From contig CAZMFR010000003.1 of NCBI GenBank assembly GCA_964565685.1, forward strand, positions 20,709-84,708: 64,000 bases of DNA, given 5' to 3'. Every line of letters begins with the position of its first letter. Within the stretch, counting starts at the first letter, position 1. The position numbers and the translations under genes are program-made. The stretch is from an uncultured Candidatus Saccharibacteria bacterium. GTDB lineage: Bacteria > Patescibacteriota > Minisyncoccia > Phycocordibacterales > PALSA-1337. Below, one piece after another: positions 1-57,199 of the stretch. Below the pieces are notes generated by a model. That model was not told the origin of the DNA, made no database searches, and worked only from the letters and a program-made list of their open reading frames with translations.

Positions 1-191
1 TTCGTTCGAAAGATCGTTTGACATTTTCAATAGCTTTTAGACGATATCGCTTTTTGATTAAAAACGGATCGTGATACTTGCGATAAAATTGATGTGAACC
101 GAATATTCTACCGATATATTGCATGCCATTGATTTTAAACTTATAATTAGCCGGTCATCATATAATATTTATTATTAATAAAAAAATCTAA

Positions 192-3648: not shown

Positions 3649-4293
3649 TCATATATAGAAAAATTCTTCGAGCACCTGCCTATACAGATTTATGACCCTC
3701 TTTGCCTCATGCTGATCCAAAGCAAAATCGGATCCTTCATGAGCTATCTGATTCCTTATTCTATGTGCTTCCCACGCTTGATCTAATGTTTTGAATTCAG
3801 CCTTGTTCGCGCCTTTTAATTGTTCGCCGATGCCTTCACCTGCATATTGCATCTTTGTCAGGATCTCACCGAGGATTATATCCGCCTCGATTATCGCTTG
3901 GCGCCAATCGCTCGCATTCGGAGAATCGGCGTGAGCCATGACGCTAGCCCATTTTTTTGTAAGGGTCGGATCCCCTTTTGCATTTTCATCATACGCCGTC
4001 TCTACTTTTAGATCATATCTTTCGGCTTCTTTTTTACGGACGTGTTTTATGCCTTCGATGGCGGTTATGATGCCGATCAGGAGCAGTACCGAGATGACGA
4101 TCGAGATGCCGATGATCCAGCCAAAGATATTTTTGATCACAGAAATAAAATCTGGATAATATTCCTTGAAATATGGATTTACATGGTCCGAGAAAAATGA
4201 GACAGCGGCTGACGAAGAAAAAATGGCGACAGCTACGACAAATACTATTATGATCGCAATAACGATATCTATCTCCTTTTTCTCGTCTTTCAT
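3649..4293 (-). CDS. Membrane-anchored protein (2 TM) with a C-terminal HEPN-like domain (Rx4H motif RNQIAH), DUF4145-like
   Basis: Hydrophobic segments at the N-terminus. C-terminus ...WEAHRIRNQIAHEGS... fits the HEPN Rx4-6H signature. Confidence 0.5.
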   Translation of the reverse strand: MKDEKKEIDIVIAIIIVFVVAVAIFSSSAAVSFFSDHVNPYFKEYYPDFISVIKNIFGWIIGISIVISVLLLIGIITAIEGIKHVRKKEAERYDLKVETAYDENAKGDPTLTKKWASVMAHADSPNASDWRQAIIEADIILGEILTKMQYAGEGIGEQLKGANKAEFKTLDQAWEAHRIRNQIAHEGSDFALDQHEAKRVINLYRQVLEEFFYI

Positions 4294-4296
4294 AAT

Positions 4297-4374
4297 GATT
4301 AGTATAAAGTAGAAAGCATAAAGTAGAAAGTGGATATGATTTGCATTTTCTTTATGCTTTTCGCTTTCTACTTC
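4297..4374 (-). repeat. Copy A of an ~80-nt upstream element (AAGTAGAAAG words) directly abutting the start codon of the HEPN-like gene. It is homologous to 49607..49692.
   Basis: Aligned directly with 49607..49692 at about 75% identity. Shared words gtataaagtagaaag...aaagtagaaagtggata...cgctttct. Confidence 0.7.
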
Positions 4375-5864
4375 CCTTCAACCTCGATGTCTTTTCCTGC
4401 TTGAAAAAGCGCCGATTCATCTCCATGTCTAGATGTAAGTTGCATACCTATAGGTAATTTCTTGCCTTCTATTTCTGAGAAGCCAGTAGGAACAGATAGG
4501 GCTGGCAAACCAGTGAGATTGGCAGTCACCGTAAAAATGTCTTCTAGATACATAGCAACAGGATCGGCTGTTTTTTCGCCTATTTTGAAAGCCGGGGACG
4601 GCGCTGTAGGAGTGAGGATGATATCGACAGACTCGAATGCTTTGTTGAAATCTTCGGTTATCAAGCGTCGAACGGCATTCGCGCGGTAATAATAGGCGTC
4701 ATAATAGCCGGATGATAGGACATAAGTGCCTAGGAGAATGCGGCGGCGCACCTCAGGACCGAAACCAGCGGCACGGCTCTCAAAATAGTCCTCGATCGAA
4801 TTCTTGCCGTCCGCATGAAGACCATATTTGACGCCATCGAATCGCGCCATGTTCGAGGAAACTTCCGCCGGCATTATCACATAGTAGACAGGCAAGGAAT
4901 ATGCGATATTCGGTAGAGTGATCTCTTTTATTTCATATCCATGCCCTTTTAGTTTCGAGATCGTGTCATCGAGATTTTTCTTGACCGCAGGATCTAGACC
5001 CTTGTCCAAGAAATGCCATGGCACTCCAATGACCGATTTCTTCAGATTTGTCGCTTTTTTTCCTTTGACTTTTGACTCGCCATGCTTGCTGATAGGCAGG
5101 GTATTTTCAGCTTTCGGCTTTTCAAGCGTCGTCGAATCCATCGGGTCTCTTCCTCTTATCGCATTGAATATTATCTCTGCATCTCCAACTGTCTTTCCAA
5201 AAGGTCCGATCTGATCCAAAGACGATCCCATAGCCATGAGTCCATATCGAGAGACAACTCCATATGTCGGCTTCAATCCGGCGAGACCACAGAATGATGC
5301 TGGTTGGCGTATAGAACCGCCAGTATCAGAACCAAGCGCGGCAAGAGCGAGATCACCCGCAACAGCCGCAGCTGAACCGCCTGAAGATCCTCCAGGTACG
5401 CGCCTCATATCGTGAGGATTTTTTGTCACACCATATGCCGATTTTTCCGTCGAACCGCCCATGGCGAATTCGTCCATATTTGTGCGACCGATTAAAATAG
5501 CGCCGTTTTCTTGTTGGAGTCTTTTTATGACTGTCGCGTCGTATGTCGCCTTGTAATTTTCAAGGATTTTTGAGGCAGCGCTTACCGTCTTTCCTTTCAC
5601 TAGAATGTTGTCTTTTATGGCAAGAGGGATGCCCATCAGCATCGGGACTTCTTTGTTTTCTTTTTTAAGATCAGCGATCGCTTTGTCGGCTGATTTCGCT
5701 TGATCGAGCACGTCTTCATAGACTTCGAGATAAGCGTGGATCTCGCCGTTCTTTTTTTTGATCTCGTCCAAATAGGATTGAACCAGTTCAACCGCAGTGA
5801 AATCGCCCTCGATGAGAGATTTGTGAGCTTTAATTATTGTTAAGCTTTGTAAGTTAATTTTCAT
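4368..5864 (-). CDS. gatA: Glutamyl-tRNA(Gln) amidotransferase subunit A
   Basis: Amidase signature GGSSGGSAAAVA, 498 aa, and gatC lies adjacent. Confidence 0.95.
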   Translation of the reverse strand: MKINLQSLTIIKAHKSLIEGDFTAVELVQSYLDEIKKKNGEIHAYLEVYEDVLDQAKSADKAIADLKKENKEVPMLMGIPLAIKDNILVKGKTVSAASKILENYKATYDATVIKRLQQENGAILIGRTNMDEFAMGGSTEKSAYGVTKNPHDMRRVPGGSSGGSAAAVAGDLALAALGSDTGGSIRQPASFCGLAGLKPTYGVVSRYGLMAMGSSLDQIGPFGKTVGDAEIIFNAIRGRDPMDSTTLEKPKAENTLPISKHGESKVKGKKATNLKKSVIGVPWHFLDKGLDPAVKKNLDDTISKLKGHGYEIKEITLPNIAYSLPVYYVIMPAEVSSNMARFDGVKYGLHADGKNSIEDYFESRAAGFGPEVRRRILLGTYVLSSGYYDAYYYRANAVRRLITEDFNKAFESVDIILTPTAPSPAFKIGEKTADPVAMYLEDIFTVTANLTGLPALSVPTGFSEIEGKKLPIGMQLTSRHGDESALFQAGKDIEVEGK

Positions 5865-5947
5865 GATATTTAGTCGAAGGTCCCGAGTCCCCAGTCGAAA
5901 TCCTTGTTTATCTTGACTTTTGGCTCGATAATTTTGACTTTACATAC
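5865..5947 (-). repeat. Dispersed repeat copy D in the gatC-gatA spacer (AGTCGAAGGTCCCGAGTC...GTCAAGATAAACAAGG)
   Basis: An 18-mer agtcgaaggtcccgagtc is identical to one inside recG (38290). The tract gagccaaaagtcaagataaacaagg matches the leader-coding DNA of the pilin at 11538..11681. Confidence 0.7.
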
Positions 5948-6229
5948 TCATAATATCTTCTTCACCGCCACAAAGTCGCCCTCCCTTTTTGGCGCTTCAT
6001 CGATTAGCCGTCCGCGATCTTTGTCTGAAGTCATAACGATGACATCTTCGCGCATGACGTTTTTCACCGCGCCTGGTTGCTGTTTGAAATCACCGATCGG
6101 AGCGGCTTTTATTTGATCGACATAAGCCAAAATCGAATCGACGTCCTTCGCTAGGCCTTCTTTTTCCTCTTCCGAAAGCCGGATTCTGGCTAAATTCGCC
6201 AGATTTTCTATGTCTTTTTTGGAAATCAT
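5948..6229 (-). CDS. gatC: Glutamyl-tRNA(Gln) amidotransferase subunit C
   Basis: MISKKDIENLANLARIRLSEEEKEGLAKDVDSILAYVDQ is typical of GatC. Trimmed to the internal Met. Confidence 0.85.
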   Translation of the reverse strand: MISKKDIENLANLARIRLSEEEKEGLAKDVDSILAYVDQIKAAPIGDFKQQPGAVKNVMREDVIVMTSDKDRGRLIDEAPKREGDFVAVKKIL

Positions 6230-6424
6230 GGCGATATTATACCACAAGATGAGTTTTCCTCTATGCTTGGCGTTTCTTTAAAGGCATTATTACGATATGT
6301 CGTAAAACATCGCACGACTCAATATGAAATGTGGATTCCAAACACGATATATCCTTCTTCTTGCTTTTATGTGTTTTTCTGCTTATAACCAACTAGTTAT
6401 ATTACAAAAAATAATATTTGCCGA

Positions 6425-9417
<2,993 letters not shown>

Positions 9418-9425
9418 ATCATTGA

Positions 9426-10112
9426 TTATTGCATAGGTGCATCGTACATCGTGTCTTCCAATGTCACTCCGCCGCCGCCGGTGACATCGCCAGGCCAAAT
9501 GACTGTAACAGTGACGTTTGCGGCATTGCCGTTTCCACCGATATTGCCGCCACTGCTCGTTGCTGTAAACGGTTGGACATAAAAATAACGAGTAAAAGTC
9601 GTGACTGGGTTTATTCCATCCTGAGTATAGCCGTTTGAGGATAGGTCGAGAGGCGGGCATGCAGTCGTATTTATATTTAGCAACGTACAAGAAGATTGGG
9701 TTATTTTATTATTTATAGTATCGATCATACACAGACCAGAGCTAGTACAACCTGTTTCCAAATCGATGCCCCCGCTCTTGATCCAATAATCGCCAATGTC
9801 TAAACTAGAATTGGCGCCGATATTCAACTCGTTATTATCCACAATGTTCCTCATATATTCCATTCCGTCTTGTGCCAAATACGATGCCATGAGCTGGTCG
9901 CGAGCATAGATAGACGCCGACAAGCTCTTTTCCGCGACGGTCAATGGCCCTGCTATAGCGATCATCAGAATGGTTATTGCCACCAGAGTCTCGACCAAGG
10001 TAAAGCCGGAAGAAGTAGAAAGCCGAAAGCCCCTAGTCGAAAGTCGGCTGTATTTGCATCTACTTTTGAAAGTTGACCATTGATCTTTGACTTTTTTTAA
10101 TATATTCCTCAT
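9426..10112 (-). CDS. Type IV pseudopilin with a 36-aa leader (…RLSTSSG|FTLVE)
   Basis: Canonical G|FTLVE prepilin-peptidase site followed by a hydrophobic helix. Confidence 0.8.
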   Translation of the reverse strand: MRNILKKVKDQWSTFKSRCKYSRLSTRGFRLSTSSGFTLVETLVAITILMIAIAGPLTVAEKSLSASIYARDQLMASYLAQDGMEYMRNIVDNNELNIGANSSLDIGDYWIKSGGIDLETGCTSSGLCMIDTINNKITQSSCTLLNINTTACPPLDLSSNGYTQDGINPVTTFTRYFYVQPFTATSSGGNIGGNGNAANVTVTVIWPGDVTGGGGVTLEDTMYDAPMQ

Positions 10113-10118
10113 GTTATT

Positions 10119-10901
10119 TTATGTCCGTTCAGATATCGTCGTCTGAAGATTGAAATATGTCTGCGTGCTCGAAGCCGAACCGGTGTAACCGGATATATAC
10201 AAAAAAACGCTTGGCTGGGTATTCGCCACAGCCGTGTTAACTTTTAAAGAATAAGCCGTAATGATGATCGACGGATCAATGATCGGGACATACTGCGTAT
10301 ACGTGTTTCCAAGAGGATCCGCGCATGGATCACTTGGATAGCTCGGATCATTGGATTCCTGTTGAGCCTTTTCAATCGTCCATGTATACACTGCAGGGTT
10401 AGATCCTGGAACTTGAACTGGTTCGAAATAATACGCATACGTCAGATTGCAAGACTGACCATTTGTTTGATCCATAGCTGTGTTCGAAGAAAGAAAAGCA
10501 ATGGAAGTGCCTGAATTTGAGTTTGAATTACCAGATATTATCAATGGTGAACATTGAGCGCCTTGGCTTGTTTGAAGAATAGGACCCGTATACATGCCGC
10601 TCGGATAGCATGTATATGCGCTCCCCAACCTTATCTCGCGCGTGATCGAATCCATGGCATAATTGATGTTGTTGACAGTGTCTTGAAGCGTTTGCGATTT
10701 CTTGCTTGCATCGACTATTTTGAGCAGAGCGGCGACGGCGATCACAGCCACGATCATGAATATCGCGATCGATACGAGCATTTCGACCAATGTAAAGCCG
10801 GAAGATCTGGAAGGAGCGGAAAGCGACAAGTGGAAATCAGAGAGTCGAGGCGACTTGCATTTTCTTTCTGCTTCATATTTTATATTTTCTACTTGTTCCA
10901 T
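10119..10901 (-). CDS. Type IV pseudopilin with a 35-aa leader (…PSRSSG|FTLVE)
   Basis: G|FTLVEMLVSIAIFMIV motif. Confidence 0.8.
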   Translation of the reverse strand: MEQVENIKYEAERKCKSPRLSDFHLSLSAPSRSSGFTLVEMLVSIAIFMIVAVIAVAALLKIVDASKKSQTLQDTVNNINYAMDSITREIRLGSAYTCYPSGMYTGPILQTSQGAQCSPLIISGNSNSNSGTSIAFLSSNTAMDQTNGQSCNLTYAYYFEPVQVPGSNPAVYTWTIEKAQQESNDPSYPSDPCADPLGNTYTQYVPIIDPSIIITAYSLKVNTAVANTQPSVFLYISGYTGSASSTQTYFNLQTTISERT

Positions 10902-10904
10902 ATT

Positions 10905-11681
10905 TTATTGATTCTGTACTGCTATCTCCCCCGTTTCATTCACAACGATGGAACGGGTCGATGTCTTGCTAGCATCTTCGACTTGAATCACGGCATAGGC
11001 GCACGGCGGGGCGTTTGTGGGACACAGCGAGCTGCCTTGTGCGACAATGATAGCATTCGGGTTAGGTCGTTTGAAAGTGATGTCGACAGAGGTGATCGAA
11101 TTTCCAGTGGTCGGGCAAGGATTTCCGGTGGTCGGAGGAGCGCTATTTTCGACATATAGGCATTTTATCAATCCGCCGCGAGCGAGAGTGTAAGTTGTGA
11201 TCAATGAGTCAGACGAAGATGTGTAAATTCCGTCTCCAAATGAATTATTGCCATTTGATGGATTCGAGTCAGCAAACAAGATCATCTGGCTCGGATTACC
11301 GCCTAGATTGTTTATATTAAAATCCATCCCAAAAGGATAGTTAAAATTCTGCGCAGAGCCCACGGTAGTCCCTTCCACGTTCAGACCGTACGATTGGGCA
11401 TCGCGCAATGCCAATGCGACATCATAAGACATGCTGGTCAGAAGAGTGCCGTCATTGAAACTCCCATAATTAGCCACAACCAAGGCGGTCATAAAGACAA
11501 AGATAGCGATGACTACTGTTAGCTCGACCAATGTAAAGCCGGAAGAAGAGAGCCGAAAGCGTCCTGCCTGCCTATAAGCACAGCAAGTCGAAAGTCCGGA
11601 GCCGTTTTTATCTTGACTTTTGATCTTTGGCTCTCGACTTTCGATTTTTTCTTCATCCTTGATTTTCTTGAATAAAAACAT
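10905..11681 (-). CDS. Type IV pseudopilin with a 48-aa leader (…RLSSSG|FTLVE)
   Basis: G|FTLVELTVVIAIFVF motif. Confidence 0.8.
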   Translation of the reverse strand: MFLFKKIKDEEKIESREPKIKSQDKNGSGLSTCCAYRQAGRFRLSSSGFTLVELTVVIAIFVFMTALVVANYGSFNDGTLLTSMSYDVALALRDAQSYGLNVEGTTVGSAQNFNYPFGMDFNINNLGGNPSQMILFADSNPSNGNNSFGDGIYTSSSDSLITTYTLARGGLIKCLYVENSAPPTTGNPCPTTGNSITSVDITFKRPNPNAIIVAQGSSLCPTNAPPCAYAVIQVEDASKTSTRSIVVNETGEIAVQNQ

Positions 11682-11684
11682 AGA

Positions 11685-12464
11685 TTAAAAACTTCCGAAC
11701 AATTGCCATCCTGTCACCATGACCAGATAAAGACCCAGAATCAGGTATGGACCGAACGGGATCTGCAAGCCATGCTTGAACGAACGATAGACTGCCGCCA
11801 TATAGATAATCGATGCCAGAGCGCCTATCCAAAATGCCAAGGCAAGAGCCGTCAAACCGTACGCCAGACCGAGCATCCAGCCGATGCCGAGAATGAGCTT
11901 TGAATCGCCGAGACCCATCCATTCTCCATGCGAAACATACCAGAGCAAAGCAAATGGCAAGGCCAAAATAGGTCCGGCAAGGAGGCGTTGCATGCTCGGG
12001 ATTATAAAAGGGTGCGCGTCATTGCCGATGAATAATAGTACGAAAGTAGCGGCGATGAAAATATAAACCAGTGGATCCGGGATTATTTTGTGCTTTATAT
12101 CGTAAACAGTTATGACCATGAGTATGCACAGAATGAAAAGCTGAAAGGCAGTGACGATACTCGAAACCATTGTCACCGGCGGATAGAGTAGGAATATGAT
12201 GACGAACAGAGCACCGGAGAAAAATTCAACCAACGGGTATTGCCAAGAAATCTTTGCTCGACAGCCCTTGCAAACGCCCCGTTGAAAAGCAAAGGACAAA
12301 ATCGGTATGAGCTCCACCCAGGTCAATGTTTTTGCGCAAGACATGCATTTCGATCGACCTCGGATGCCGACGCCCGTGTTGTAGCGCAGGGCCAGGACAT
12401 TCAAAAAGCTTCCTATGAGCGTGCCGAGTATGAATGAGACGATGAGTATGAGATATGGCTGCAT
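11685..12464 (-). CDS. pilD: Prepilin peptidase (A24 family) with an N-terminal Cys-rich zinc-binding motif
   Basis: CxxC…CxxC motif, multiple TM segments, and typical PilD layout adjacent to pilins. Confidence 0.85.
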   Translation of the reverse strand: MQPYLILIVSFILGTLIGSFLNVLALRYNTGVGIRGRSKCMSCAKTLTWVELIPILSFAFQRGVCKGCRAKISWQYPLVEFFSGALFVIIFLLYPPVTMVSSIVTAFQLFILCILMVITVYDIKHKIIPDPLVYIFIAATFVLLFIGNDAHPFIIPSMQRLLAGPILALPFALLWYVSHGEWMGLGDSKLILGIGWMLGLAYGLTALALAFWIGALASIIYMAAVYRSFKHGLQIPFGPYLILGLYLVMVTGWQLFGSF

Positions 12465-12490: not shown

Positions 12491-13042
12491 TTAATTCGGC
12501 CGCACACAGTAGTCTAAACCGTTAGCCACAATCGGACTTGTCGCTTGATTTCCACAATTGAAACTAGACGACTCAGTATTAAAAGTCGAAAGCCATGACG
12601 TCGGCGCAGGTGCGCTCTGAGCCAAAACAGAATTCGTTGTTTCAAAAATCGTGTAAAGGACATAATCGGTCGGTTGGCTTGAATTATTTACGGCGTATCC
12701 ATAATCAGCATTCTTCAATGGAGACCCTGATCCAGATGGATCAGTCGGCATTTGTGAAATAAAATTAGCCAGAGTAACGACCGGCGTCGCGCCATTCATC
12801 GGACATCCATTATAAATGCTCGCCAAAGTCTGACCGCTTGCAGGATAGATTGTCGCCGGATATTGATCGCACCTGTCAAAATACTGTTCCAGCGCCAATG
12901 ATATCTGCGACAGGTCAGACGCTCTCTGTCCGTCACGGGCTTTTGCCTTTGAACCGACTAGACCGGTGACGACAATAGCCGTCAAGACGCCGATTATAGC
13001 AATGACCACGATCATTTCGACTAGAGTGAATCCTTTTTTCAT
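12491..13042 (-). CDS. Type IV pilin with a short canonical leader MKKG|FTLVEM
   Basis: Prepilin N-terminus with a Cys pair in the C-terminal domain. Confidence 0.85.
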   Translation of the reverse strand: MKKGFTLVEMIVVIAIIGVLTAIVVTGLVGSKAKARDGQRASDLSQISLALEQYFDRCDQYPATIYPASGQTLASIYNGCPMNGATPVVTLANFISQMPTDPSGSGSPLKNADYGYAVNNSSQPTDYVLYTIFETTNSVLAQSAPAPTSWLSTFNTESSSFNCGNQATSPIVANGLDYCVRPN

Positions 13043-16224: not shown

Positions 16225-16692
16225 GATATTTTCCCCCCATGTCGCACAATAGTTCTTGTTAGTCTTCAATCAGCCAGAAAGAAGGGTTCCGATACGCGTG
16301 TTATAGCCGACGTACAGCAAGTCCGCGATGCTTTGGAAACGGGATCTACTGGTTCATCGTATCCAGATCTTAGTAACACCGCTTTGGGTACTACAGCAAA
16401 TACAGGAAATACTACTTACACTTGTTTTGTAAGCAATTGGATAAATACAGGTCCTCAGACCAGTGCAATCGCTGCGCAAGCCAATGATGCTTGTTCTCAA
16501 GGTACCACAAATGATATATCGATAGTTACTGGTAACCCCGCTGCACCTGCTACATCTGCAACAATTAATGCGTATGCCATTTACGGAAAGCTTGTTTCGA
16601 CTACAAATTATTTTTGTATAGATTCAAGTGGTCAAACCAATCCATCAGCGATAGCTCATGCTAGCTCTACTTGCCCTACGGCCGGTAACTAA
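16225..16692 (+). pseudogene. 5'-truncated pilin paralogue (silent cassette). It lacks the leader and N-terminal helix, and its first 74 nt are identical to an internal segment of the expressed pilin at 16774..17301.
   Basis: In-frame translation from 16225 gives IVLVSLQSARKKGSDTRVIADVQQVRDALETG…, matching residues ~30–60 of the neighbouring pilin. There is no start codon for that frame, and a stop lies at 16222-16224. Confidence 0.75.
16247..16320 (+). repeat. Left arm of a perfect 74-bp inverted repeat (partner 17143..17216)
   Basis: Base-by-base comparison shows the reverse complement of 16247..16320 equals 17143..17216 at 74/74. Confidence 0.9.
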
Positions 16693-16720
16693 ATTTCCAG
16701 GGTTAAAACGTGTATGTAAA

Positions 16721-16746
16721 CAAAAACCCCTCTCAAGGGGTTTTTG
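16721..16746. terminator. Bidirectional intrinsic terminator between the convergent pilin C-terminal regions
   Basis: AAAAACCCCTCTCAAGGGGTTTTT: a GC stem flanked by an A-run and a T-run. Confidence 0.7.
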
Positions 16747-16773
16747 TATGATTACGAGAAGTCTAAAGACAAA

Positions 16774-17301
16774 TTACATACAAGTTGTGCTAGCAGTACC
16801 AGGAGTTGGCTCAGAAGTACCTGTTCTTCCTGTCGAATCTATGCAGAAGTAGCCAGATGTATTACTAACCAAGTGCCCATATATAGCATAACCTACTACA
16901 GTAGTAGCAGAAGTACCTGTTGCAACGATATTTATATCATTCGTGCCACCTTGTTGGCAAGCATCATATGCTTGAGTATTAATCGCATTTACCTGAGAGC
17001 CAGAAGTACTCCAATCATAGACAGTGCAAGATGTATTCACTGGATTACCAAATGAAGTCGAACCGGCATTATTCGTACCGGCGGTGGTAGTAAGATCAGG
17101 ATAATATGAACCAGTGAACCCCGTCTCCAAAGCATCTCTTATTTGCTGTACGTCGGCTATAACACGCGTATCGGAACCCTTCTTTCTGGCTGATTGAAGA
17201 CTAACAAGAACTATTGATGACAATATACCAATGATGGCGATAACCACGAGCAATTCGATGAGGGTGAAACCGCCATTTCTATTTGCATTCATTTTTTTCA
17301 T
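16774..17301 (-). CDS. Type IV pilin (PilA-like) with leader MKKMNANRNGG|FTLIELLVV. This is the expressed partner of the invertible C-terminal switch.
   Basis: Prepilin N-terminus with a C-terminal Cys pair. Contains the right arm of the inverted repeat in codons ~30–54. Confidence 0.85.
   Translation of the reverse strand: MKKMNANRNGGFTLIELLVVIAIIGILSSIVLVSLQSARKKGSDTRVIADVQQIRDALETGFTGSYYPDLTTTAGTNNAGSTSFGNPVNTSCTVYDWSTSGSQVNAINTQAYDACQQGGTNDINIVATGTSATTVVGYAIYGHLVSNTSGYFCIDSTGRTGTSEPTPGTASTTCM
17143..17216 (-). repeat. Right arm of the 74-bp inverted repeat, lying inside the expressed pilin gene
   Basis: Identical to the reverse complement of 16247..16320. Confidence 0.9.
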
Positions 17302-17469: not shown

Positions 17470-18035
17470 CAGGATAAAGTGAAACTCCCCGACCTCACGG
17501 TCGGGGTTTCTTTTCATTCAAACAGCTTCGCTGTTTGCCCAGCGTCGTCTTGGCCTTGCTTTTCAATGTACTTGCGTATGATATCTTCGTTGATGCCGAC
17601 CGTCGAGACGAAGTAACCGTCTGACCAGAATTTGTCTGTGCCCCAATAGACTTTCCTGAGGAACGTGAATTTTTGCTTCATATCCTTTGCAGTGTTTTGC
17701 TTGATAATGCCAATGACCTTTCCCACGGCAGTTGTTGGAGGAATTGAAGCCAAGAGGTGTATATGATCTTCGTCGTGATTCTCGGTTTTGAATATGAAAT
17801 ATGGATGGTGTTCGGTGATCTCGCGAAGCTTCAATTCGAGATATGCAAAAATTCCTTCATTGATAACTCTTCTCCTGAATCTTGTCGTGATGACGATGTG
17901 GTAGTCGCAGTAATAGACTGCATGGCTCGTTTTTCGGTATTCCATGCTAACAGTATCCGTCAAGACGACGCTGGGGGCAACTGCATCCCTGATCTGACGA
18001 TCAGGGCATTAGTGTTGCAAGTAAATAGCGGCTTG
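17470..18035 (-). mobile_element. IS200/IS605-family element (boundaries approximate) with subterminal hairpins
   Basis: Encodes a TnpA. Hairpins CCCCGACCTCACGGTCGGGG (17486-17505) and CCCTGATCTGACGATCAGGG (17978-17997) flank the gene. Confidence 0.6.
17514..17963 (-). CDS. tnpA: IS200-like Y1 (HUH) transposase TnpA
   Basis: 149 aa with the HIHLL (HxH) motif and YCDYHIV…, typical of IS200 TnpA. Confidence 0.8.
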   Translation of the reverse strand: MTDTVSMEYRKTSHAVYYCDYHIVITTRFRRRVINEGIFAYLELKLREITEHHPYFIFKTENHDEDHIHLLASIPPTTAVGKVIGIIKQNTAKDMKQKFTFLRKVYWGTDKFWSDGYFVSTVGINEDIIRKYIEKQGQDDAGQTAKLFE

Positions 18036-18048
18036 GTTTAGGAAAAAA

Positions 18049-18068
18049 TGTGGGCACGAGAGGATTTG
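18049..18068 (-). repeat. 20-nt direct repeat of the tRNA-Leu 3' end (TGTGGGCACGAGAGGATTTG), ~150 bp from the intact gene
   Basis: Exact 20-mer match with 18196..18215. Confidence 0.7.
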
Positions 18069-18198
18069 GTCACAGGTTTTCTCGCTTCGCTCGAAACCCG
18101 CGACCCCGCCTCGCTCGTTGCCGTCTCTACGCGACATGGCAACTTCGCTCCGGCTTTCAAATCCTCTCTTTGTGCAAAGATAACGCCTTGATCAATTG

Positions 18199-18280
18199 TG
18201 GGCACGAGAGGATTTGAACCTCCAAGGATTGCTCCACACGCTCCTGAAGCGTGCGCGTATGCCAGTTCCGCCACGTGCCC
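18199..18280 (-). tRNA. tRNA-Leu (anticodon CAG), type II with a long variable arm
   Basis: Reverse complement GGGCACGTGGCGGAACTGGCATACGCGCACGCTTCAGGAGCGTG…GGAGGTTCAAATCCTCTCGTGCCCA. The acceptor stem pairs, and the anticodon loop is TTCAGGA. Confidence 0.8.
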
Positions 18281-18673: not shown

Positions 18674-18865
18674 TTATCCTCCGTTTTTTAATTGTTTCTG
18701 CAAAGTAATTGAGACTCTGCTAGTTGTTTGTGCTGTTTGACTTGACTAACTACCCACAATGCTATCACAAGTATAGTATAAAGTCAATAGCATGAGAAAA
18801 ATCCCTGCTTTAAGCCATAATCAGTCAAAAGTCCCTTGCCTGCCGATAGATATGAACAGCATGAC

Positions 18866-18925
18866 AAGTCGAAAGCATAAAATCAATGCAAACATTTCTG
18901 ACTTTCTACCAGGTACTTTCGACTT
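18866..18925 (+). repeat. Dispersed repeat copy C (GTCGAAAGCATAAAATCAATGCAAACATTTCTGACTTTCTACC), immediately after pilC
   Basis: Similar to copies A and B (aaaatgcaaa, ctttctac and gtcgaaag words). Confidence 0.55.
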
Positions 18926-18926
18926 A

Positions 18927-20135
18927 TTATTGCGCCTCCGCAATCGAATAAATCGGCACCAGAACCGAAGCCATGAGAATAGCCACGCCAACACCGAGGA
19001 CGACGATCATCAATGGTTCGATCAAATCAACGAGAGTGGCCACGGCATTTGTCACTTCGCGGGAGTAAAAGAGAGCCATAGTCTTCATGATAGGTCCGAG
19101 CTCGCCAGATTCCTCGCCCACTTTCATCATTTGGATCATAATACCTGGAATCTCGCCGGAGGCGGCTAGCGCTTCGGACATGGCTTTGCCTGTCTTGACC
19201 GCTTCGACTGCGTCAGCCAAAATGACGCGATATACTTCGTTATTGATGACATCAGAAGTCAGTTCCAATGCCCTGACCATGGGAATGCCGGCTTGGAGCA
19301 TAGTATTGATATTGTCGGCCAGACGCGACAGATAAAGTTTTTTATAGAGAACGCTGACATAAGGGATGTGGAGCTTCAACCGATCAAAAGCGATCTTGCC
19401 GCTAGGCGTGCGGATATAACGAAAGACAAAGAAACCGACGACTATGATGACAGCCAGGAGTATAAAGCCATAGCTGACCAGGAAATTCGATATGCCGAGT
19501 ATGACTTGGGTATAGATAGGTATGGCTACGCCAGAATCGGTGATAATACCGGAGATCTTTGGTATGACCATAGTAAACATAAGGATCATGACCGTTATGA
19601 AAGTCATGACGACGAAAGCAGGATAGACCAAGGCGCCCTTTGCCTTCGAAGTGAGCTCGTATGTGCGATCCAAGTAATCGGCCAAATATTGAAAGGTTTC
19701 GTCCAGCTTGCCTGACTCCTCGCCTGCCTTGATCATATTGACATAAAATGAAGAAAAGATTTTCGGATGCTTGGCCATAGCGGCAGAGATGGAACTGCCG
19801 CCCTGCAAATCGTCAGCGATAACAGTCAATTTTGCTCCGAGGACTTTGTTGTCGGTCTCGCCGGCGATCATGCGGAAAATACGCAAAGCGGAAACTTGGG
19901 CCTCGAACAGAGTCGACAGCTGACGGGATAGGATGACGATGTCTTTGGTTGAAACGCGATCGAACCATGAAATATTCATCGACAAAAAACTGCCTTTGCC
20001 AGTGGCCTCTTTTATCGACGATATGACGAGACCGCGTCGCTGAAGACCGGCTATAGCGACGTCGACATTGACAGCATCGATCGAGCCAGTCGCTTGTTCT
20101 CCCTTTTCATTTACGGTCGTGTAGTTAAATAGCAT
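18927..20135 (-). CDS. pilC: Type IV pilus / T2SS platform protein (GspF/PilC family)
   Basis: 402 aa with two T2SSF-like repeats and three TM segments. Confidence 0.85.
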   Translation of the reverse strand: MLFNYTTVNEKGEQATGSIDAVNVDVAIAGLQRRGLVISSIKEATGKGSFLSMNISWFDRVSTKDIVILSRQLSTLFEAQVSALRIFRMIAGETDNKVLGAKLTVIADDLQGGSSISAAMAKHPKIFSSFYVNMIKAGEESGKLDETFQYLADYLDRTYELTSKAKGALVYPAFVVMTFITVMILMFTMVIPKISGIITDSGVAIPIYTQVILGISNFLVSYGFILLAVIIVVGFFVFRYIRTPSGKIAFDRLKLHIPYVSVLYKKLYLSRLADNINTMLQAGIPMVRALELTSDVINNEVYRVILADAVEAVKTGKAMSEALAASGEIPGIMIQMMKVGEESGELGPIMKTMALFYSREVTNAVATLVDLIEPLMIVVLGVGVAILMASVLVPIYSIAEAQ

Positions 20136-37925: not shown

Positions 37926-40202
37926 ATGATCACCTCTGCCACTCCCCTTTCAAAAATCACGCGCGTCATGGAAATTCAAGGGCGCGGCTTGAAAAAGCTC
38001 GGCATAGAAACAGTTGGCGACCTTCTGCGGCATTTTCCCATTCGTTATGGCGATACATCTGAGATCCGTTCTATAGATTCTCTCGAGCATGGAACCGTAG
38101 CCGTCGTATTCGGCAAAGCAACAAAATTAAAAACAAGCAAAGGATTTCGTAGTCACATACCAATGGCTAGCGCACAGATTGAAGACGAGAGCGGCCGTAT
38201 CCAATGCGTGTGGTTCAATCAGCCATACCTGGCAAAAATGATACCCGAAGGCGCATTTGTTAGAGTTGAAGGAAAAGTAAGCCAGAGGAAAAGTCGAAGG
38301 TCCCGAGTCGAAGGCCTCGAGTCGAAAACAAAAACAGAAGGTGAAATATCCGTGGAATATGAAGACGATGGTTTGGGCGAGACCGGTGGTCATCTCTACT
38401 TCTCCAATCCAAAAATAGAAAAGGTCGACAAACTGCCGATCGGCGTCGGCGATTCTCTGTTTGGCGCTGATGGAGAATCGCATACCCTATACCCTGTCTA
38501 TGCCGAATCGCGCGGCATCACTTCAAATTGGATGTATCACGCCATGCAAAAAATATTCAAAAGCGGCTTGATCGAAGAGATCGAGGATCCACTACCGAAA
38601 GAGATCTTGGAAAAGTATAATCTGCCCGGACTTCGGACTGCCCTCATTTGGATGCACACGCCGATGAAAAAAAATGACGCCGAAGCCGCTCGCAAACGAT
38701 TCGCTTTCGAAGAGATTTTCTTCATACAACTCGAAAAACAAGCCGCTCGCCGAGAATACGAGAAAAATCCCAGTTTCTCTGTGCAAGCTCCGATCGAATC
38801 GGTCAACGAATTCATAAAACGGTTTCCTTTCCCCGCCACAGAAGCACAAACTAGAGCGATCGGGACGATCGTCGAAGACATGAAAAAAAATAAAGCGATG
38901 TCGCGGCTATTAGAAGGCGATGTCGGCTCCGGCAAGACTGCTGTAGCTGCGTCGGCGGCATATGCAGTCGTCGCTTCTCGACCTCTTGGCCAAAAATTTG
39001 GCAATCTGCAGGTCGCATATATGTGTCCGACAGAGATCTTGGCTACGCAGCATTTTGAATCATTTATACAATATTTCGCATACCTCGGCGTCAATATCGG
39101 CCTCATCACCGGCTCTGGCTGTCGCAAATTCCCCTCAAAAGTGAATCCTAAAGGTTGGACGGATATTTCGCGCGCGCAATTGTTAAAGTGGGTCAAGGAA
39201 GGCGACATGCCGATCCTCATAGGCACACACGCGCTCATACAAAAAAGCGTTGAATTCAAACATCTCGCATTGGTCGTAATAGACGAGCAACATCGGTTCG
39301 GCACGCGACAAAGGGCAGAATTGGTAAAGAAAAATACATTGGGGCACTCATCCTTGCTTGCCCCTCACCTTCTCTCCATGACAGCAACGCCCATTCCTCG
39401 CACCCTTGCACTGACTTTGTACGGCGACCTTGACCTTACCCTGCTCGACCAAATGCCTCTCGGAAGGAAACAAGTCGTGACCGAGATAATCACGCCGACA
39501 AAACGCGAAAAGATGTATGAGAGGATGAGATCAGAGCTTGTGGCTAGACGGCAAGCTTATGTCATTTGCCCGCGCATTGACGAGCCAGACCCGGACAAGG
39601 AGCTCGCCCTCGAGGCAAAATCTGTCAAAGCAGAAGCCAGACGTTTGAAGAAAAGCGTTTTCCCAGAATATGAGATCGGCGTCCTCCATAGCAGAATGAA
39701 ACCGGAAGAAAAAGACAAAGTCATGCTCGATTTCAAAGCGGGCAAAATAAACATCCTGTGCGCCACATCCGTCATAGAAGTCGGCGTCAATGTGCCAAAT
39801 GCCACCTGCATAATAATCGAAGGGGCCGAGCGTTTTGGCTTGGCACAGCTTCACCAGTTGCGCGGCCGTGTCCTGCGCAGCGAGCACCAGGCATACTGTT
39901 TCATCTTTGCAGAAAAGGCATCTGGAAAGACTCTGACCCGCTTGAAAAATTTTACGAAGGCAAAAAACGGCTTCGAACTGGCTGAGTTCGACCTGGCCGA
40001 GCGCGGCACTGGCGATCTATCAGGTTTAAAGCAATGGGGTATATCCGATATCGCCATGGACGCTCTAAAAAATTTAAAAATGGTAGAAGCGGCTCGCACA
40101 GAGGCCAGCGCGCTCCTCGACATTGATCCATCATTCGCGCGGTTCCCTCTTATAAAAAAAGAATTAGAAAAGAGGAAAGCGGACAAGGTGCATTTCGAGT
40201 GA
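37926..40202 (+). CDS. recG: ATP-dependent DNA helicase RecG, carrying a ~30-aa repeat-derived insertion in the N-terminal wedge region
   Basis: SF2 helicase motifs GDVGSGKT, DEQHRFG, and the TRG motif. 758 aa. Confidence 0.9.
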   Translation: MITSATPLSKITRVMEIQGRGLKKLGIETVGDLLRHFPIRYGDTSEIRSIDSLEHGTVAVVFGKATKLKTSKGFRSHIPMASAQIEDESGRIQCVWFNQPYLAKMIPEGAFVRVEGKVSQRKSRRSRVEGLESKTKTEGEISVEYEDDGLGETGGHLYFSNPKIEKVDKLPIGVGDSLFGADGESHTLYPVYAESRGITSNWMYHAMQKIFKSGLIEEIEDPLPKEILEKYNLPGLRTALIWMHTPMKKNDAEAARKRFAFEEIFFIQLEKQAARREYEKNPSFSVQAPIESVNEFIKRFPFPATEAQTRAIGTIVEDMKKNKAMSRLLEGDVGSGKTAVAASAAYAVVASRPLGQKFGNLQVAYMCPTEILATQHFESFIQYFAYLGVNIGLITGSGCRKFPSKVNPKGWTDISRAQLLKWVKEGDMPILIGTHALIQKSVEFKHLALVVIDEQHRFGTRQRAELVKKNTLGHSSLLAPHLLSMTATPIPRTLALTLYGDLDLTLLDQMPLGRKQVVTEIITPTKREKMYERMRSELVARRQAYVICPRIDEPDPDKELALEAKSVKAEARRLKKSVFPEYEIGVLHSRMKPEEKDKVMLDFKAGKINILCATSVIEVGVNVPNATCIIIEGAERFGLAQLHQLRGRVLRSEHQAYCFIFAEKASGKTLTRLKNFTKAKNGFELAEFDLAERGTGDLSGLKQWGISDIAMDALKNLKMVEAARTEASALLDIDPSFARFPLIKKELEKRKADKVHFE
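38285..38335 (+). repeat. In-frame dispersed-repeat copy inside recG (GGAAAAGTCGAAGGTCCCGAGTCGAAGGCCTCGAGTCGAAAAC)
   Basis: An 18-mer is identical to the gatA–gatC spacer, and a 14-mer is identical to the 5S–23S spacer. It encodes KSRRSRVEGLESKTK. Confidence 0.7.
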
Positions 40203-40851: not shown

Positions 40852-40910
40852 ATTATATCACTTAAAAAGAAGCTTCGCAGTAAACCTTCTCGAACGTCGC
40901 CCTATCGTGT

Positions 40911-40953
40911 CCGCCCTCTAGGATTCGAACCTAGGACTCCAGAGGTATATGAT
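40911..40953 (-). repeat. Partial copy of the tRNA(UAU) 3' half (positions 34–73), beginning at the anticodon
   Basis: 40 of 41 nt identical to 40995..41036. Confidence 0.75.
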
Positions 40954-40994
40954 TACATATCGATTTTGCGCTCGCACAATATTGCAAATGTCCG

Positions 40995-41068
40995 TCCGCC
41001 CTCTAGGATTCGAACCTAGGACCCCAGAGGTATAAGCTCTGTGCTCTAACCAACTGAGCTAAGGGCGG
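40995..41068 (-). tRNA. tRNA with anticodon UAU (Ile, AUA-decoding type). No CCA is encoded.
   Basis: Reverse complement CCGCCCT-TA-GCTC-AGTTGGTTA-GAGC-A-CAGAG-CTTATAC-CTCTG-GGGTC-CTAGG-TTCGAAT-CCTAG-AGGGCGG-A. All stems pair. Confidence 0.75.
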
Positions 41069-41102
41069 ACACACATTTTCAACATGCACTCGCTTGAATC
41101 GA

Positions 41103-41139
41103 TAAGCTCTGTGCTCTAACCAACTGAGCTAAGGGCGGG
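41103..41139 (-). repeat. Partial copy of the tRNA(UAU) 5' half (positions 1–36), ending at the anticodon
   Basis: 37-nt identity with 41034..41070. Confidence 0.75.
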
Positions 41140-47174: not shown

Positions 47175-47199
47175 ATATAATTGTATGACAATGTATATA
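47175..47199. promoter_or_regulatory. Palindrome copy 1 (TGACAATGTATATACATTGTAAA), a candidate operator
   Basis: Near-perfect inverted repeat 30–50 bp upstream of the DinJ-like start. Confidence 0.5.
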
Positions 47200-47375
47200 C
47201 ATTGTAAATCGCGACAAAAAAGTGAAGGGATCATGCCACTTGGCCACGATTGCGAACAACTATCATTTCATGCTTTTTGTTTTAACACAATTTTCTGCAC
47301 ATCTTTAAGGACAACCGGTTTAGTTTAAGCAGTGTGTATATGATGCGACGCGGGATGTACATGCTTTTAAACTGT

Positions 47376-47405
47376 ATGTTTACAATGTATATACATTGTA
47401 AACAT
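47376..47405. promoter_or_regulatory. Palindrome copy 2 (ATGTTTACAATGTATATACATTGTAAACAT), a perfect 30 bp
   Basis: Perfect dyad symmetry. Confidence 0.55.
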
Positions 47406-49606: not shown

Positions 49607-49692
49607 GAGTCAAGTATAAAGTAGAAAATGCAAAGTAGAAAGTGGATACGATATGTATTTCCTCTCTACTTTATAATTTTCGCTTTCTGCTT
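49607..49692 (-). repeat. Copy B of the ~80-nt upstream element, directly abutting the RNase J start codon
   Basis: Aligned directly with 4297..4374 (gtataaagtagaaa…aaagtagaaagtggata…cgctttct). Confidence 0.7.
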
Positions 49693-49985
49693 ATAACGTC
49701 AATCGCCGCACCAGATGATCGATGCGGCGATGCAGGCTACCGAGGCATTAAACTAAACTTTGTGAGCTTAGGTGGGTTTCCTCAAAGTGAACGCCAAGGC
49801 GCCGCTTAATTTGAATTTTATAAAATAGAATTCATTGGAATCCCTGAAATATTGGTATAGGTTTTTATGCTTCAGTAACCTGGCATAAGTATGAACCTAA
49901 AAAATAAAGTGACAAGGGTGGATAAGTATTCGGAAAGATTATTGACAAAGATGCAAATCAAATAGTTTGAGAAAAACCGAATAGT

Positions 49986-56597: not shown

Positions 56598-56610
56598 AAT
56601 GTCCGTAAGG

Positions 56611-56690
56611 AAAAGTCGAAGGTAACCGAGTCCCGAGTCGAAAGCCATCAAAAAAGACAAACTCGTAGAGTTTCTACTTTCCCTTGAAAC
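56611..56690 (+). repeat. Dispersed repeat copy E in the 5S–23S spacer (GGAAAAGTCGAAGGTAACCGAGTCCCGAGTCGAAAGCC…GTTTCTACTTT)
   Basis: Shares a 14-mer with the recG insert and has the family words. Confidence 0.65.

Positions 56691-57166: not shown

Positions 57167-57199
<33 letters not shown>

Follow-up and report, generated by a model that had tools for sequence, protein, structure and literature searches.

The 64-kb stretch of DNA analysed here (the window) comes from a small Patescibacteria (candidate phyla radiation, CPR) genome of a Paceibacteria-like lineage. It carries gatC and gatA, ligA, four pseudopilin genes, pilC, recG, a beta-CASP RNase gene and the 23S and 5S rRNA genes. Profile searches placed 10 solid copies and one doubtful copy (in ligA) of a short repeat at these loci (Table 1). 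The sites comprise gene spacers, cleaved pilin leader peptides and in-frame loops of DNA-repair enzymes, the three settings named in the first-pass annotation of this DNA, and the copy reported there after pilC is real. Copies are hairpin-forming and measure 60-90 nt. A short run of AGT(C/A)NNN heptamers makes up the 5' arm, complementary NNN(G/T)ACT heptamers make up the 3' arm, and a short A-rich loop lies between them. Each arm comprises 2-5 tandem heptamers and arm length differs by whole heptamers, the dominant units in the window being AGTCGAA, AGTAGAA and AGTATAA. The internal inverted repeats noticed earlier correspond to these arms and their hairpin folds, and the dispersed "words" turn out to be the units of a 7-nt period that had been missed. 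The elements had also been described as lying in both orientations, which does not hold: every copy scores best on the minus strand. The half-copy in recG, opposite to the orientation of the other copies, is the only one antisense to its host gene. The fourth pseudopilin gene spans 8719-9417 and is not the open reading frame 8719-9690.

Table 1. Repeat copies in the window, their locations, profile matches and folds. The end of the leader is marked by an arrow.
Copy	Coordinates	Strand	Location	Profile match	Fold	Sequence
A-type	4294..4376	-	Fills the 74-nt spacer from gatA (4368-5864) to a 214-aa gene (3649-4293); gives gatA its TAG stop	nhmmer score 56.8, E 1e-16	-18.7 kcal/mol, z -3.9	On + strand: AGTATAA AGTAGAA AGCATAA AGTAGAA AGTGGAT (loop) CTTTATG CTTTTCG CTTTCTA CTT
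F-type	5865..5947	-	Fills the gatC-gatA spacer	Score 68, E 3e-20		On - strand: AAAGTCAAAATTATCGAGCCAAAAGTC AAGATAAACAAGG ATTTCGACTGGGGACTCGGGACCTTCGACT
Doubtful member	8167..8356	-	In-frame insert in LigA	Weak, at 8341-8365 only		
Composite	9293..9401	-	41-aa leader of pseudopilin 4 (gene 8719-9417)	A profile 50.3		Leader end ...PSTSS↓GYTLLFAM
Degenerate	10009..10088	-	35-aa leader of pseudopilin 3 (gene 9426-10112)	A profile 46.2; independent F profile, E 1.5e-4	Not significant	
A-type	10810..10896	-	34-aa leader of pseudopilin 2 (gene 10119-10901)	Score 68.7		
F-type	11578..11646	-	47-aa leader of pseudopilin 1 (gene 10905-11681)	Score 53.6	-32.8 kcal/mol, z -5.5	Translated ...IESREPKIKSQDKNGSGLST...
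Copy after pilC	18865..18928	-	Directly after the pilC stop (pilC 18927-20135)	A profile 32.8; F profile, E 7e-4	z -3.2	TAAGTCGAAAGTA...TGCTTTCGACTT
Half element, AGTC array alone	38290..38326	+	In frame in recG, hot spot 1, aa ~121-133			AGTCGAA GGTCCCG AGTCGAA GGCCTCG AGTCGAA; RKSRRSRVEGLESK
A-type, copy B	49607..49694	-	Between a conserved upstream block (GCGGCGATTGAC) and the beta-CASP RNase start codon (gene 48215-49606)	Score 65.6	-21 kcal/mol, z -4.1	
Partial	56613..56655	-	23S-5S spacer, ~20 nt upstream of 5S rRNA (56487-56593)	Independent F profile, E 1.5e-4	Not significant	3' arm GGCTTTCGACTCGGGACTCGGTTACCTTCGACT

These copies form a genuine dispersed repeat family. The nhmmer profiles recovered ten sites with no other match in the window, and the F profile also detects copies outside its building set with E values of ~1e-4 to 1e-3. 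The word AGTMGAARG and its complement occur 19 times in the window against 2.2 +/- 1.8 expected from Markov-3 simulations (~9-fold excess), and period-7 AGT/ACT arrays occur six times against 0.15 expected (~40-fold above Markov-3). The matches between distant copies given in the first-pass annotation were reproduced. The 18-mer AGTCGAAGGTCCCGAGTC is identical in the gatC-gatA spacer (5872) and in recG (38292), and with up to three mismatches it has five matches where 0.03 are expected. The 14-mer GGAAAAGTCGAAGG is identical in the recG insert (38287) and the 5S-23S spacer (56609), with identity extending to 16/16. The gatC-gatA spacer (5865-5947) also has an exact 16-mer in common with the pseudopilin leader region at 11607-11622. 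The pair of copies at two start codons, given as about 80 nt long, is 89% identical over 36 nt (4301-4336 versus 49613-49648) and 82% over 60 nt.

A reading in which there is no family, and low-complexity purine-rich sequence slipped independently at each site under the codon bias of hydrophilic loops, is disfavoured and very improbable. It would account for the variation of arms in whole heptamers and for the low complexity of the RecG and LigA hot spots in many relatives. Heptameric simple sequence repeats (SSRs) are moreover, as far as two papers describe them, the most over-represented class of long SSR in bacteria, with slippage as their supposed origin (PMC4692102, PMC4679880). However, slippage and codon bias do not predict exact 16-18-mers common to coding and non-coding copies, the excess of words and arrays over Markov-3, inverted arrays of fixed polarity, or the conservation of loops within subfamilies and across four genomes. 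This last property defines the two subfamilies, A and F, in which alignment and profile cross-detection show loops conserved as well as arms; the F subfamily is the one that spans four genomes. The RNA fold beats shuffled sequences in five of eight window copies (z -3.2 to -5.5), is marginal in one more (z -2.0) and is lost in the degenerate ones. Among copies from relatives, three of four reach z ~ -5.8.

Roughly half of the copies in the window lie in translated sequence, namely those in RecG and the four pilin leaders, and the reading frame is maintained in coding copies. A search beyond the window, which had been proposed as a check, showed that other Patescibacteria carry this element in PolA, MnmA and PyrG, read in the same frame. 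The translated segments are hydrophilic, as described at first sight, and are predicted to be disordered: in AF2 models of modest overall quality (mean pLDDT 65-66), pLDDT is ~30 at RecG aa 124-154 and 26-33 at LigA aa 110-164. The LigA insert, at ~aa 107-165 of a 750-aa protein, lies in a hot spot following the sequence ARTRRFL. It had been counted as a copy, but its AAAGTC words are irregular. The insert also contains a GC-rich long palindrome (GGACTCTTGGTGTCCGAGGG...CCCGAGGACACAAGAGTCC) that differs from the family. Its membership is doubtful and it is probably a different module. The pilin leaders are unusually long (34-47 aa) and probably stem from the elements instead of serving a function.

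We compared the same sites in related Paceibacteria genomes (Rel1, Rel2, L250, L251 and L252), which differ in the presence or absence of elements and in their flavour. Rel1 is represented by the 858-kb contig Ga0480574_000002 (JGI 3300044823). The gatC-gatA spacer is 9 nt long (AAAATAGAC) in Rel1 and L250, 19 nt in L251, 39 nt in L252, 83 nt in the window and 100 nt in Rel2, where it holds a heptamer hairpin with different words. The spacer between gatA and the next gene measures 8 nt in Rel1 and in L251, 74 nt in the window, and 27, 28 and 91 nt elsewhere. Pilin leaders vary from 8 to 48 aa, those of the minor pilins from 8 to 47 aa, and which leader holds which element differs from genome to genome. 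The leader of pseudopilin 4 has 9 aa in Rel2, 28 aa with an A-type copy in Rel1 and 37 aa with an F-type copy in L250. That of pseudopilin 3 has 22-25 aa in relatives, that of pseudopilin 2 has 8 aa in Rel1 and L250 (MK(N/K)QNAQS↓GF), and that of pseudopilin 1 has 10 aa in L250 and 21 aa in Rel2. At the RecG and LigA hot spots inserts range from 0 to >100 aa across relatives. The insert at recG hot spot 1 is absent from distant orthologues and is replaced in Rel2 by a differently worded AGTC array; at the LigA hot spot relatives have 0-70 aa, with none in L252. The orthologue comparison suggested for these two genes yielded relatives without an insert or with a different one. At the position of copy B, upstream of the beta-CASP RNase gene, Rel1 (L119) has unrelated sequence of similar length. 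Array density is 0 in L252, 0.27 per 10 kb in Rel1 and 4-5 per 10 kb in Rel2, L250 and L251, and each related genome has a distinct heptamer set; the window ranks as element-rich with the latter three, Rel1 and L252 as element-poor. The species of the window also occurs in peat and soil metagenomes. Six assemblies of this species show 100% identity at all element sites; no recent movement is therefore seen, and the comparison is uninformative on recent mobility.

We favour the reading, with a probability of about 0.55, that the element is a small non-autonomous hairpin-forming repeat with heptamer-microsatellite arms, behaving like REP/BIME elements, MITEs and Rickettsia palindromic elements (RPEs) and occupying permissive sites only. 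Existing copies would give rise to new ones within one genome, through transposition or through recombination/gene conversion between copies, and slippage during replication would then make the arms lengthen, shorten and drift. With the genome so compact that spacer DNA is nearly absent, copies would survive only at harmless places, such as operon gene gaps, positions after stop codons, the rRNA spacer, leaders removed by prepilin peptidase and disordered surface loops. Both heptamer flavour and load would be particular to each related genome, and the same permissive sites would therefore be filled by different flavours, or be empty, among relatives. The different flavours at one site could, however, also be one ancestral element rewritten in each genome. 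Copy-and-paste origin and near-neutrality are what we infer; the enzyme might, at a guess, be an HUH/Y1-kind transposase that recognises single-stranded-DNA hairpins.

Searches for the machinery bear on the same reading, and it is weakened by their outcome, as it is by the identity of the six assemblies: no mobilising transposase, target-site duplication or insertion-site motif for the repeats was found. The window has a single Y1 transposase, and this is a TnpA of the common IS200/IS605 type, which scores 113.5 bits with the IS200 model NF033573 and 21.8 bits with the RAYT model (cut-off 80); for these 64 kb a RAYT/REP system was rejected. The flanks and ends of this TnpA form other hairpins with no resemblance to the repeats. 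Neither the window nor ~850 kb of other loci yielded a parent insertion sequence with ends like those of the repeats. Between empty and filled gatC-gatA and gatA-next-gene junctions no duplication was seen, although the flanks are too diverged to fix the element ends.

A metagenome scan revealed at least 120 loci with inverted arrays of AGTC-core heptamers, at 31-71% GC. In this sample 14% of elements lie within long open reading frames versus 55% of random positions, and the intergenic ones fall between 37 tandem, 17 convergent and 6 divergent gene pairs. Half elements and unpaired arrays also occur. At two loci, L182 and L201, two copies on one contig have an identical loop; a transposase as the gene enclosed by such pairs was rejected, as ordinary genes (in L182 a membrane-protein gene) or an inverted duplication were found instead. 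A degenerate 18-mer scan of a genome collection was too loose, giving at least 118 loci that are mostly chance matches; among the matches listed, copies from REEB237 Patescibacteria stand beside examples from four further phyla. AGTC arrays are also carried by isolates of Mucilaginibacter, which can be cultivated. Phage origin was rejected, a scan of viral contigs giving 0 matches.

Two properties of the metagenome elements are awkward for copying of whole hairpins. The AGTC array leads in 14 of 15 unbiased head-to-head cases from five phyla, and this near-invariant AGTC-to-GACT polarity needs an unspecified directional process; GC skew was too weak a signal to part replication from transcription orientation. 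In register, complementarity between the variable triplets of one arm and those of the other does not exceed that of controls, which a simple copied hairpin would not predict, and selection for a perfect stem is therefore not claimed. Both properties would be expected if a directional, templated process wrote each array where it stands, with no copying from one array to another, for example during double-strand-break healing, in which genome-specific heptamers added to both 3' ends would give (unit)n-filler-(reverse-complement unit)n. Arms arrayed from one unit, and orthologous sites that bear the heptamer flavour of their own genome, fit such writing as well. It is nevertheless improbable: loop conservation within subfamilies fits copying of whole elements, as do the L182 and L201 pairs, half elements and unpaired arrays exist, and no candidate enzyme or template is known. 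In its widest form, AGTC-core inverted arrays would be the footprint of a widespread directional DNA process (templated or strand-specific writing) rather than ordinary copy-and-paste repeats. The near-invariant polarity in at least five phyla, the one-unit arms and the own heptamers at sister sites are what link the arrays to such a process, and we regard this as a long shot. If true, it would also cover the long-unexplained heptamers of the cyanobacterial STRR repeats; we found no established mechanism for these microsatellites in the literature.

The positions of the copies relative to genes raise a further alternative, that the elements are selected cis-acting RNA or single-stranded-DNA signals: operon punctuation, 3'-end stabilising hairpins, or heptamer sites for OB-fold (Csp/S1-like) proteins. 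The coding copies would then be by-products, and the OB-fold variant would affect translation of the downstream gene. Three window copies (the A-type copy next to gatA, copy B and the gatC-gatA copy) end 6-7 nt ahead of a start codon, one begins right after the pilC stop, and the metagenome elements begin at a median of 6 nt past stop codons. Strict polarity would be natural for a strand-specific signal. Heptamer repeats immediately upstream of start codons in Beggiatoaceae have been proposed as regulator sites, and CspB binds one heptamer per monomer (PMC4679880). We consider such signals unlikely, since close relatives manage with 8-9-nt spacers at the same junctions, neither the sequence nor the length of the sites is conserved among relatives, translation extends to about half of the copies in the window, and degenerate copies no longer fold. 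No known RNA family was recognised: there was no Rfam match at gathering thresholds, and when positions 4200-12000 were scanned permissively, only miRNA-hairpin noise below threshold appeared. Consensus scans for promoters and terminators were no higher than chance.

The element can be compared with several known systems. The likeness to RPEs proposed in the first-pass annotation stands for behaviour and fails for membership. RPEs, like the Wolbachia palindromic elements, are palindromes inserted in frame in housekeeping genes of a reduced genome, which remain intact, and also in non-coding DNA; their peptides lie in exposed or disordered regions, and orthologues share the locus or carry different repeat groups nearby (PMC3767692). 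In-frame insertion that leaves the gene intact likewise occurs here, in RecG and the four pilin leaders and, in other Patescibacteria, in PolA, MnmA and PyrG, and the RecG and LigA inserts are predicted to be disordered. By description the two are nevertheless set apart: RPEs measure 100-150 bp (PMC3767692) instead of 60-90 nt, end in CGTC (PMC3733652) where the present elements start with AGT(C/A)... and end with ...(G/T)ACT, and have no heptamer arrays, and the host here belongs to Patescibacteria and not to Rickettsiales. In-frame selfish palindromes in essential genes have hitherto been a Rickettsiales curiosity, and an unrelated element that behaves alike in a reduced CPR genome suggests a general outcome of genome compaction. 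The elements probably explain some of the length variation and "low-complexity inserts" of CPR proteins, and gene callers and CPR marker-protein alignments should mask such segments.

REP, BIME and REPIN elements, extragenic palindromes that RAYT transposases mobilise, resemble the family as short, many-copy hairpins found mostly just downstream of genes, in genome-specific families and loads. REPs are located downstream of genes, with tandem or convergent neighbours, and have occasional intragenic copies, notably in replication and repair genes (PMC3733652); the corresponding intragenic sites here are in RecG, LigA and PolA. The heptamer words hold GTAG/GTCG, which is compatible with the degenerate REP tag GTMG. 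A REP, however, has one stem of 5-13 bp with an unpaired tetranucleotide tag (GTAG/GTMG or CGTC), whereas here GTAG/GTCG recurs inside paired heptamer units and pairs with CTAC/CGAC, and no RAYT was found in the 64 kb. Prokaryotic MITEs, at 50-800 bp (PMC11602168), include the present size range, and they are likewise small, non-autonomous and many-copy, have inverted ends and lie in or near genes. In contrast to MITEs, the "terminal repeats" here are heptamer arrays of variable length and not fixed terminal inverted repeats, and neither a target-site duplication nor a parent insertion sequence was seen.

The heptamers themselves have counterparts in heptameric SSRs, namely cyanobacterial STRR/GGGGA(C/T)T, Xanthomonas GGGAATC and Beggiatoaceae TAACTGA. 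As far as PMC4692102 and PMC4679880 describe them, these are also tandem 7-nt units in intergenic DNA, often beside start or stop codons and in some cases as inverted pairs, with length and sequence variation at the same sites in close relatives. The described Nostoc units are GGGGA(C/T)T and CCCCAGT. Among the units of the present elements, AGTCCCC has Nostoc GGGGACT as its reverse complement; it occurs once in the window (5886-5892), and AGTCCCG and AGTCCCA occur in relatives. The SSRs differ in being mainly direct and often long arrays, without the short head-to-head form and conserved loop; the passages of the two papers that describe them do not mention in-frame or leader-peptide copies, nor do they report such arrays from Patescibacteria. 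We found no published description of a family of this type, in agreement with its earlier designation as undescribed, but relatives of the heptamers from which it is built have been described, namely STRR/GGGGACT and other heptameric SSRs. The AGTC-core, 7-nt-period, fixed-polarity class present in several phyla is a candidate for connecting REP-like hairpins with the cyanobacterial heptamer microsatellites.

The words that the first-pass annotation had picked out are real, and are better recast as units of a 7-nt periodicity. The copy at the A site (4294..4376) reads, on the plus strand, AGTATAA AGTAGAA AGCATAA AGTAGAA AGTGGAT, a loop, then CTTTATG CTTTTCG CTTTCTA CTT, and the gatC-gatA spacer copy (5865..5947) includes AGTCGAA GGTCCCG AGTCCCC AGTCGAA. 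Six AGT/ACT arrays of period 7 occur in the window versus 0.15 expected. From this periodicity and excess, a full copy consists of two arrays placed head to head, (AGT[C/A]NNN)n - loop - (NNN[G/T]ACT)n. The aligned loops distinguish two subfamilies. The F type (AAGA(T/A)A..A..GG) comprises the gatC-gatA spacer, the pilin-1 leader and copies from three other genomes; the A type (G(A/G)AAA(T/G)(G/A)CAA(A/G)TC) comprises the A site, the B site (49607..49694), the pilin-2 leader and the pilin-4 leader of a relative, Rel1. Most copies fold as RNA much better than dinucleotide shuffles, with z-scores of -3.2 to -5.5 for 5 of 8 window copies and -3.9 to -5.8 for 3 of 4 copies from relatives. Against the same shuffles z is a marginal -2.0 for the gatC-gatA copy, and three degenerate copies do not reach significance.

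These heptamer hairpins form a real, well-supported repeat family with copies at unrelated loci. The reported exact 18-mer lies in the gatC-gatA spacer (5872) and in recG (38292), with 0.03 chance matches expected, and the 14-mer common to the recG insert (38287) and the rRNA spacer (56609) is likewise exact. Short-word BLAST within the window ties the sites into one network: it bears out the resemblance of A to B (89% over 36 nt) and of the gatC-gatA copy to the pilin-1 leader (16/16), and adds gatC-gatA to recG (18/18) and to the rRNA spacer (17/18), recG to the rRNA spacer (16/16) and A to the pilin-2 leader (18/19). The degenerate word AGTMGAARG was counted 19 times versus 2.2 in Markov-3 simulations. 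Profiles of the two subfamilies, run with nhmmer, recovered ten sites in the window and no further ones; the F profile also detects copies outside its training set at 56613-56648, 10020-10088, 9339-9398, 18865-18926 and 38291-38323 (E about 1e-4 to 1e-3). Two earlier statements need correction. The ligA insert exists, but its AAAGTC words are irregular, it has a GC-rich palindrome of its own, and its family membership is the weak point. Copies had also been placed in both orientations; every copy scores best on the minus strand, and this follows the host genes except at the recG half-copy (38290..38326, an AGTC array alone), which is antisense to recG. Two other dispersed words, GCCGTCTTT (9 times) and TGCCGTCTTT (5 times), are among the commonest non-homopolymeric 9/10-mers in the window and bear no relation to the family.

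Genes around the copies in the window
Feature	Coordinates	Strand
214-aa protein	3649-4293	-
gatA	4368-5864	-
gatC	5948-6247	-
ligA	6425-8677/8704	-
Four minor pseudopilins	8719-9417, 9426-10112, 10119-10901, 10905-11681	-
Prepilin peptidase	11685-12464	-
pilC	18927-20135	-
recG	37926-40202	+

The window derives from a Patescibacteria (CPR) genome, as judged from a 23S rRNA gene that is stretched to 4.4 kb and has a group I intron, 5S and tmRNA genes, and nearest LigA and RecG homologues labelled Paceibacteria, Parcubacteria or Patescibacteria. The 23S-5S spacer measures 1.3 kb; inside it are an ORF at 56818-57156 and two inverted repeats that match perfectly over 22 nt (56691-56712 / 56964-56985). 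The spacer and the intron of the 23S gene were noted at 56594-57920 and 58476-59012.

We compared syntenic DNA from five relatives with 72-81% protein identity (Rel1, loci L119/L121; Rel2, loci L120/L122/L123; L250; L251; L252) and from six assemblies of the window's own species. Presence and flavour, that is, each genome's own heptamer wording, vary at orthologous sites. The gatC-gatA spacer is 83 nt in the window, 9 in Rel1 and L250 (AAAATAGAC in both), 19 in L251, 39 in L252 and 100 in Rel2, where a hairpin of equal architecture is built from other heptamers (AGTACCT AGTTCCT AGTACTT ... CGGTACT AGGAACT) and folds at -40 kcal/mol. The spacer between gatA and the next gene is 74 nt in the window, 8 in Rel1 and L251, 27 in L250, 91 in L252 and 28 in Rel2. 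Array density per 10 kb is 0 in L252, 0.27 in Rel1 and 4-5 in Rel2, L250 and L251, and the dominant heptamers differ from genome to genome. Among the six same-species assemblies no element site varies, and no recent movement was seen.

The minor pilins of the window have leaders of 47, 34, 35 and 41 aa ahead of G|F or G|Y, far exceeding the usual length of type IV pilin leaders; the minor-pilin leaders go down to 8 aa in Rel1 and L250 and to 9 aa in Rel2. Which leader carries which element differs between genomes: in L250 an F-type copy sits in the pilin-4 leader and an AGTCCCG/AGTCCCA copy in that of pilin 3, and in L251 the pilin-4 leader has an AGTTACA-flavoured copy. The window's two major pilins (12491-13042, 16774-17301) have leaders of 4 and 11 aa and no element. 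A 970-bp segment (16247-17216) between 136-nt inverted repeats, 90% complementary, holds the 5' part of the second major pilin gene and an opposed partial pilin-like ORF. It is inverted in two same-species assemblies (L245, L246) that are otherwise essentially identical (about 99.9-100%), and looks like an invertible cassette switching the pilin C-terminal domain.

Coding copies preserve the reading frame. The suggested comparison with orthologues revealed two hypervariable hot spots in RecG and one in LigA, where distant orthologues have no insert and close ones carry 0 to >100 aa. The insert is absent from LigA of L252 (RFLKIGNTNLTYLCEHKI); Rel2 and L251 have a hairpin at the LigA hot spot, each with its own flavour. 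In recG, the conserved EISVEYED is preceded in both the window and Rel2 by an AGTC array, located at one shared codon position. Their arrays are not alike, and that of the window has its exact 18-mer in common with the window's gatC-gatA copy; copies are thus closer to paralogues than to orthologues. Translated inserts had been described as loops, in agreement with AlphaFold2 models built from shallow alignments (mean pLDDT 65-66). In these models the RecG insert (aa 124-154, pLDDT about 30) is located between two strands of the wedge OB-fold, and the LigA insert (aa 110-164, pLDDT 26-33) between domain Ia and the adenylation domain, which fits tolerated, disordered loops.

Other in-frame modules recur at unrelated hot spots of these proteins (RecG homologues drawn from P0006-P0021 and P0120). 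Rel1 carries a ~35-aa module, (E/S)A(S/Q)DTSF.GLL.EPSGRVRGMGNRGIARRKNVS.AE, in both RecG hot spot 1 and the LigA hot spot, and several other relatives also have it. The module IAQ(R/A)DG(A/P)SIAKSQQAFMRAD.. occupies one or the other RecG hot spot, 1 or 2, depending on the genome. In the window's LigA and in relatives' RecG, a GC-rich palindrome accompanies an 'EGLSE(R/A)' module. Several further coding-palindrome families seem to exist in the clade.

The feature appears to reach across several phyla. F-type copies lie in frame in PolA (...VESRKFQVKSQNTKDSGLSTRDFRP...) and MnmA (...ESKVESQEAKGSGLGTRDFRL...) of the Patescibacteria MAG REEB237 and in PyrG of a Rel2-like contig, all in the reading frame of the window's pilin-1 leader copy (...ESREPKIKSQDKNGSGLST...). 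The gapped pattern TCGAAAGTC N10-40 GGACTTTCGACT matched at least 120 metagenome loci and no viral contigs. Among the matches listed, GC content ranges from 31 to 71%, and almost all are (AGTCNNN)n-loop-(NNNGACT)n hairpins. Again among the matches listed, 14% lie in long ORFs versus 55% of random positions; intergenic elements separate tandem (37) or convergent (17) genes, seldom divergent ones (6), and start a median of 6 nt past the upstream stop codon. Equal architecture was also seen in loci of Mucilaginibacter and of one MAG each from Bacillota, Chloroflexota and Pyrinomonadaceae. Unpaired direct GAC(T/C) heptamer arrays of up to ~80 nt (TTCGACT TTTGACT TTCGACC ...), with no inverted partner and similar to classical STRR arrays, were seen in two fetched loci (L170 4009-4089, L065 137-175).

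The elements are most likely a REP/RPE-like, non-autonomous repeat, which would be copied inside each genome, have its heptamer arms altered by slippage and survive solely at permissive sites. We infer copy-and-paste spread, near-neutrality and an enzyme; no target-site duplication was seen at filled and empty gatC-gatA and gatA-next-gene junctions, whose flanks have diverged too far to place the element ends exactly. Some copies may be under selection for a cis-function, for example as mRNA-end hairpins or, by analogy with a proposal for TAACTGA repeats (PMC4679880), as sites close to start codons where a protein binds the heptamers. As a general explanation, this is opposed by the sites that are empty in close relatives, by poor conservation and by the translation of some copies. 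In samples unbiased by the search pattern, 14 of 15 elements have the AGTC array ahead of the GACT array, and the variable triplets of the arms show no excess of in-register complementarity (0.55 versus 0.55-0.58 in controls, among the matches listed). A copied repeat does not account for this fixed polarity and these non-complementary arms, which keep in play a more unusual, directional 'writing' mechanism, although we consider it improbable.

The window's IS200/IS605-type TnpA (17514-17963, within 17514-18280) was considered as a mobiliser of the RAYT kind and rejected: it falls outside the RAYTs, and the terminal hairpins that it has of its own are unlike the repeats. The adjoining tRNA-Leu 3' end (aaatcctctcgtgcccaca) is repeated ~130 nt downstream, which looks like an integration scar at a tRNA. 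The tRNA-Ile(TAT) gene (40994-41068, within 40909-41138) is flanked by near-exact duplicates of both its halves (40909-40949, 98%; 41102-41138, 100%). The palindrome ACAATGTATATACATTGTAAA occurs three times within 470 nt of non-coding DNA (47188-47656) and may represent operator or iteron sites.

The resemblance to Rickettsia palindromic elements proposed earlier holds for behaviour and fails for build. RPEs, like the heptamer hairpins, are in frame, exposed and at sites shared or nearly shared among orthologues (PMC3767692), but they are 100-150 bp long, CGTC-tagged and of unrelated build (PMC3733652). REPs are similarly placed, also form genome-specific families and occasionally lie inside replication and repair genes (PMC3733652), but each is one tagged stem, with a link to RAYTs. 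Heptameric SSRs have the 7-nt unit in common with the hairpins, and the Nostoc GGGGACT repeat the AGTCCCC unit itself; in the available passages such SSRs are conserved in site and variable in sequence (PMC4692102), but are described as direct arrays, and those passages (PMC4692102, PMC4679880) make no mention of in-frame inserts. Searches of open-access text found nothing relevant on CPR repeat elements or the motif strings, in line with the initial view that the family is undescribed. The heptamer family works like RPE and REP elements without belonging to either; what sets it apart is that its arms are heptamer arrays, that its polarity is fixed and that it occupies the leader peptides of pilins.
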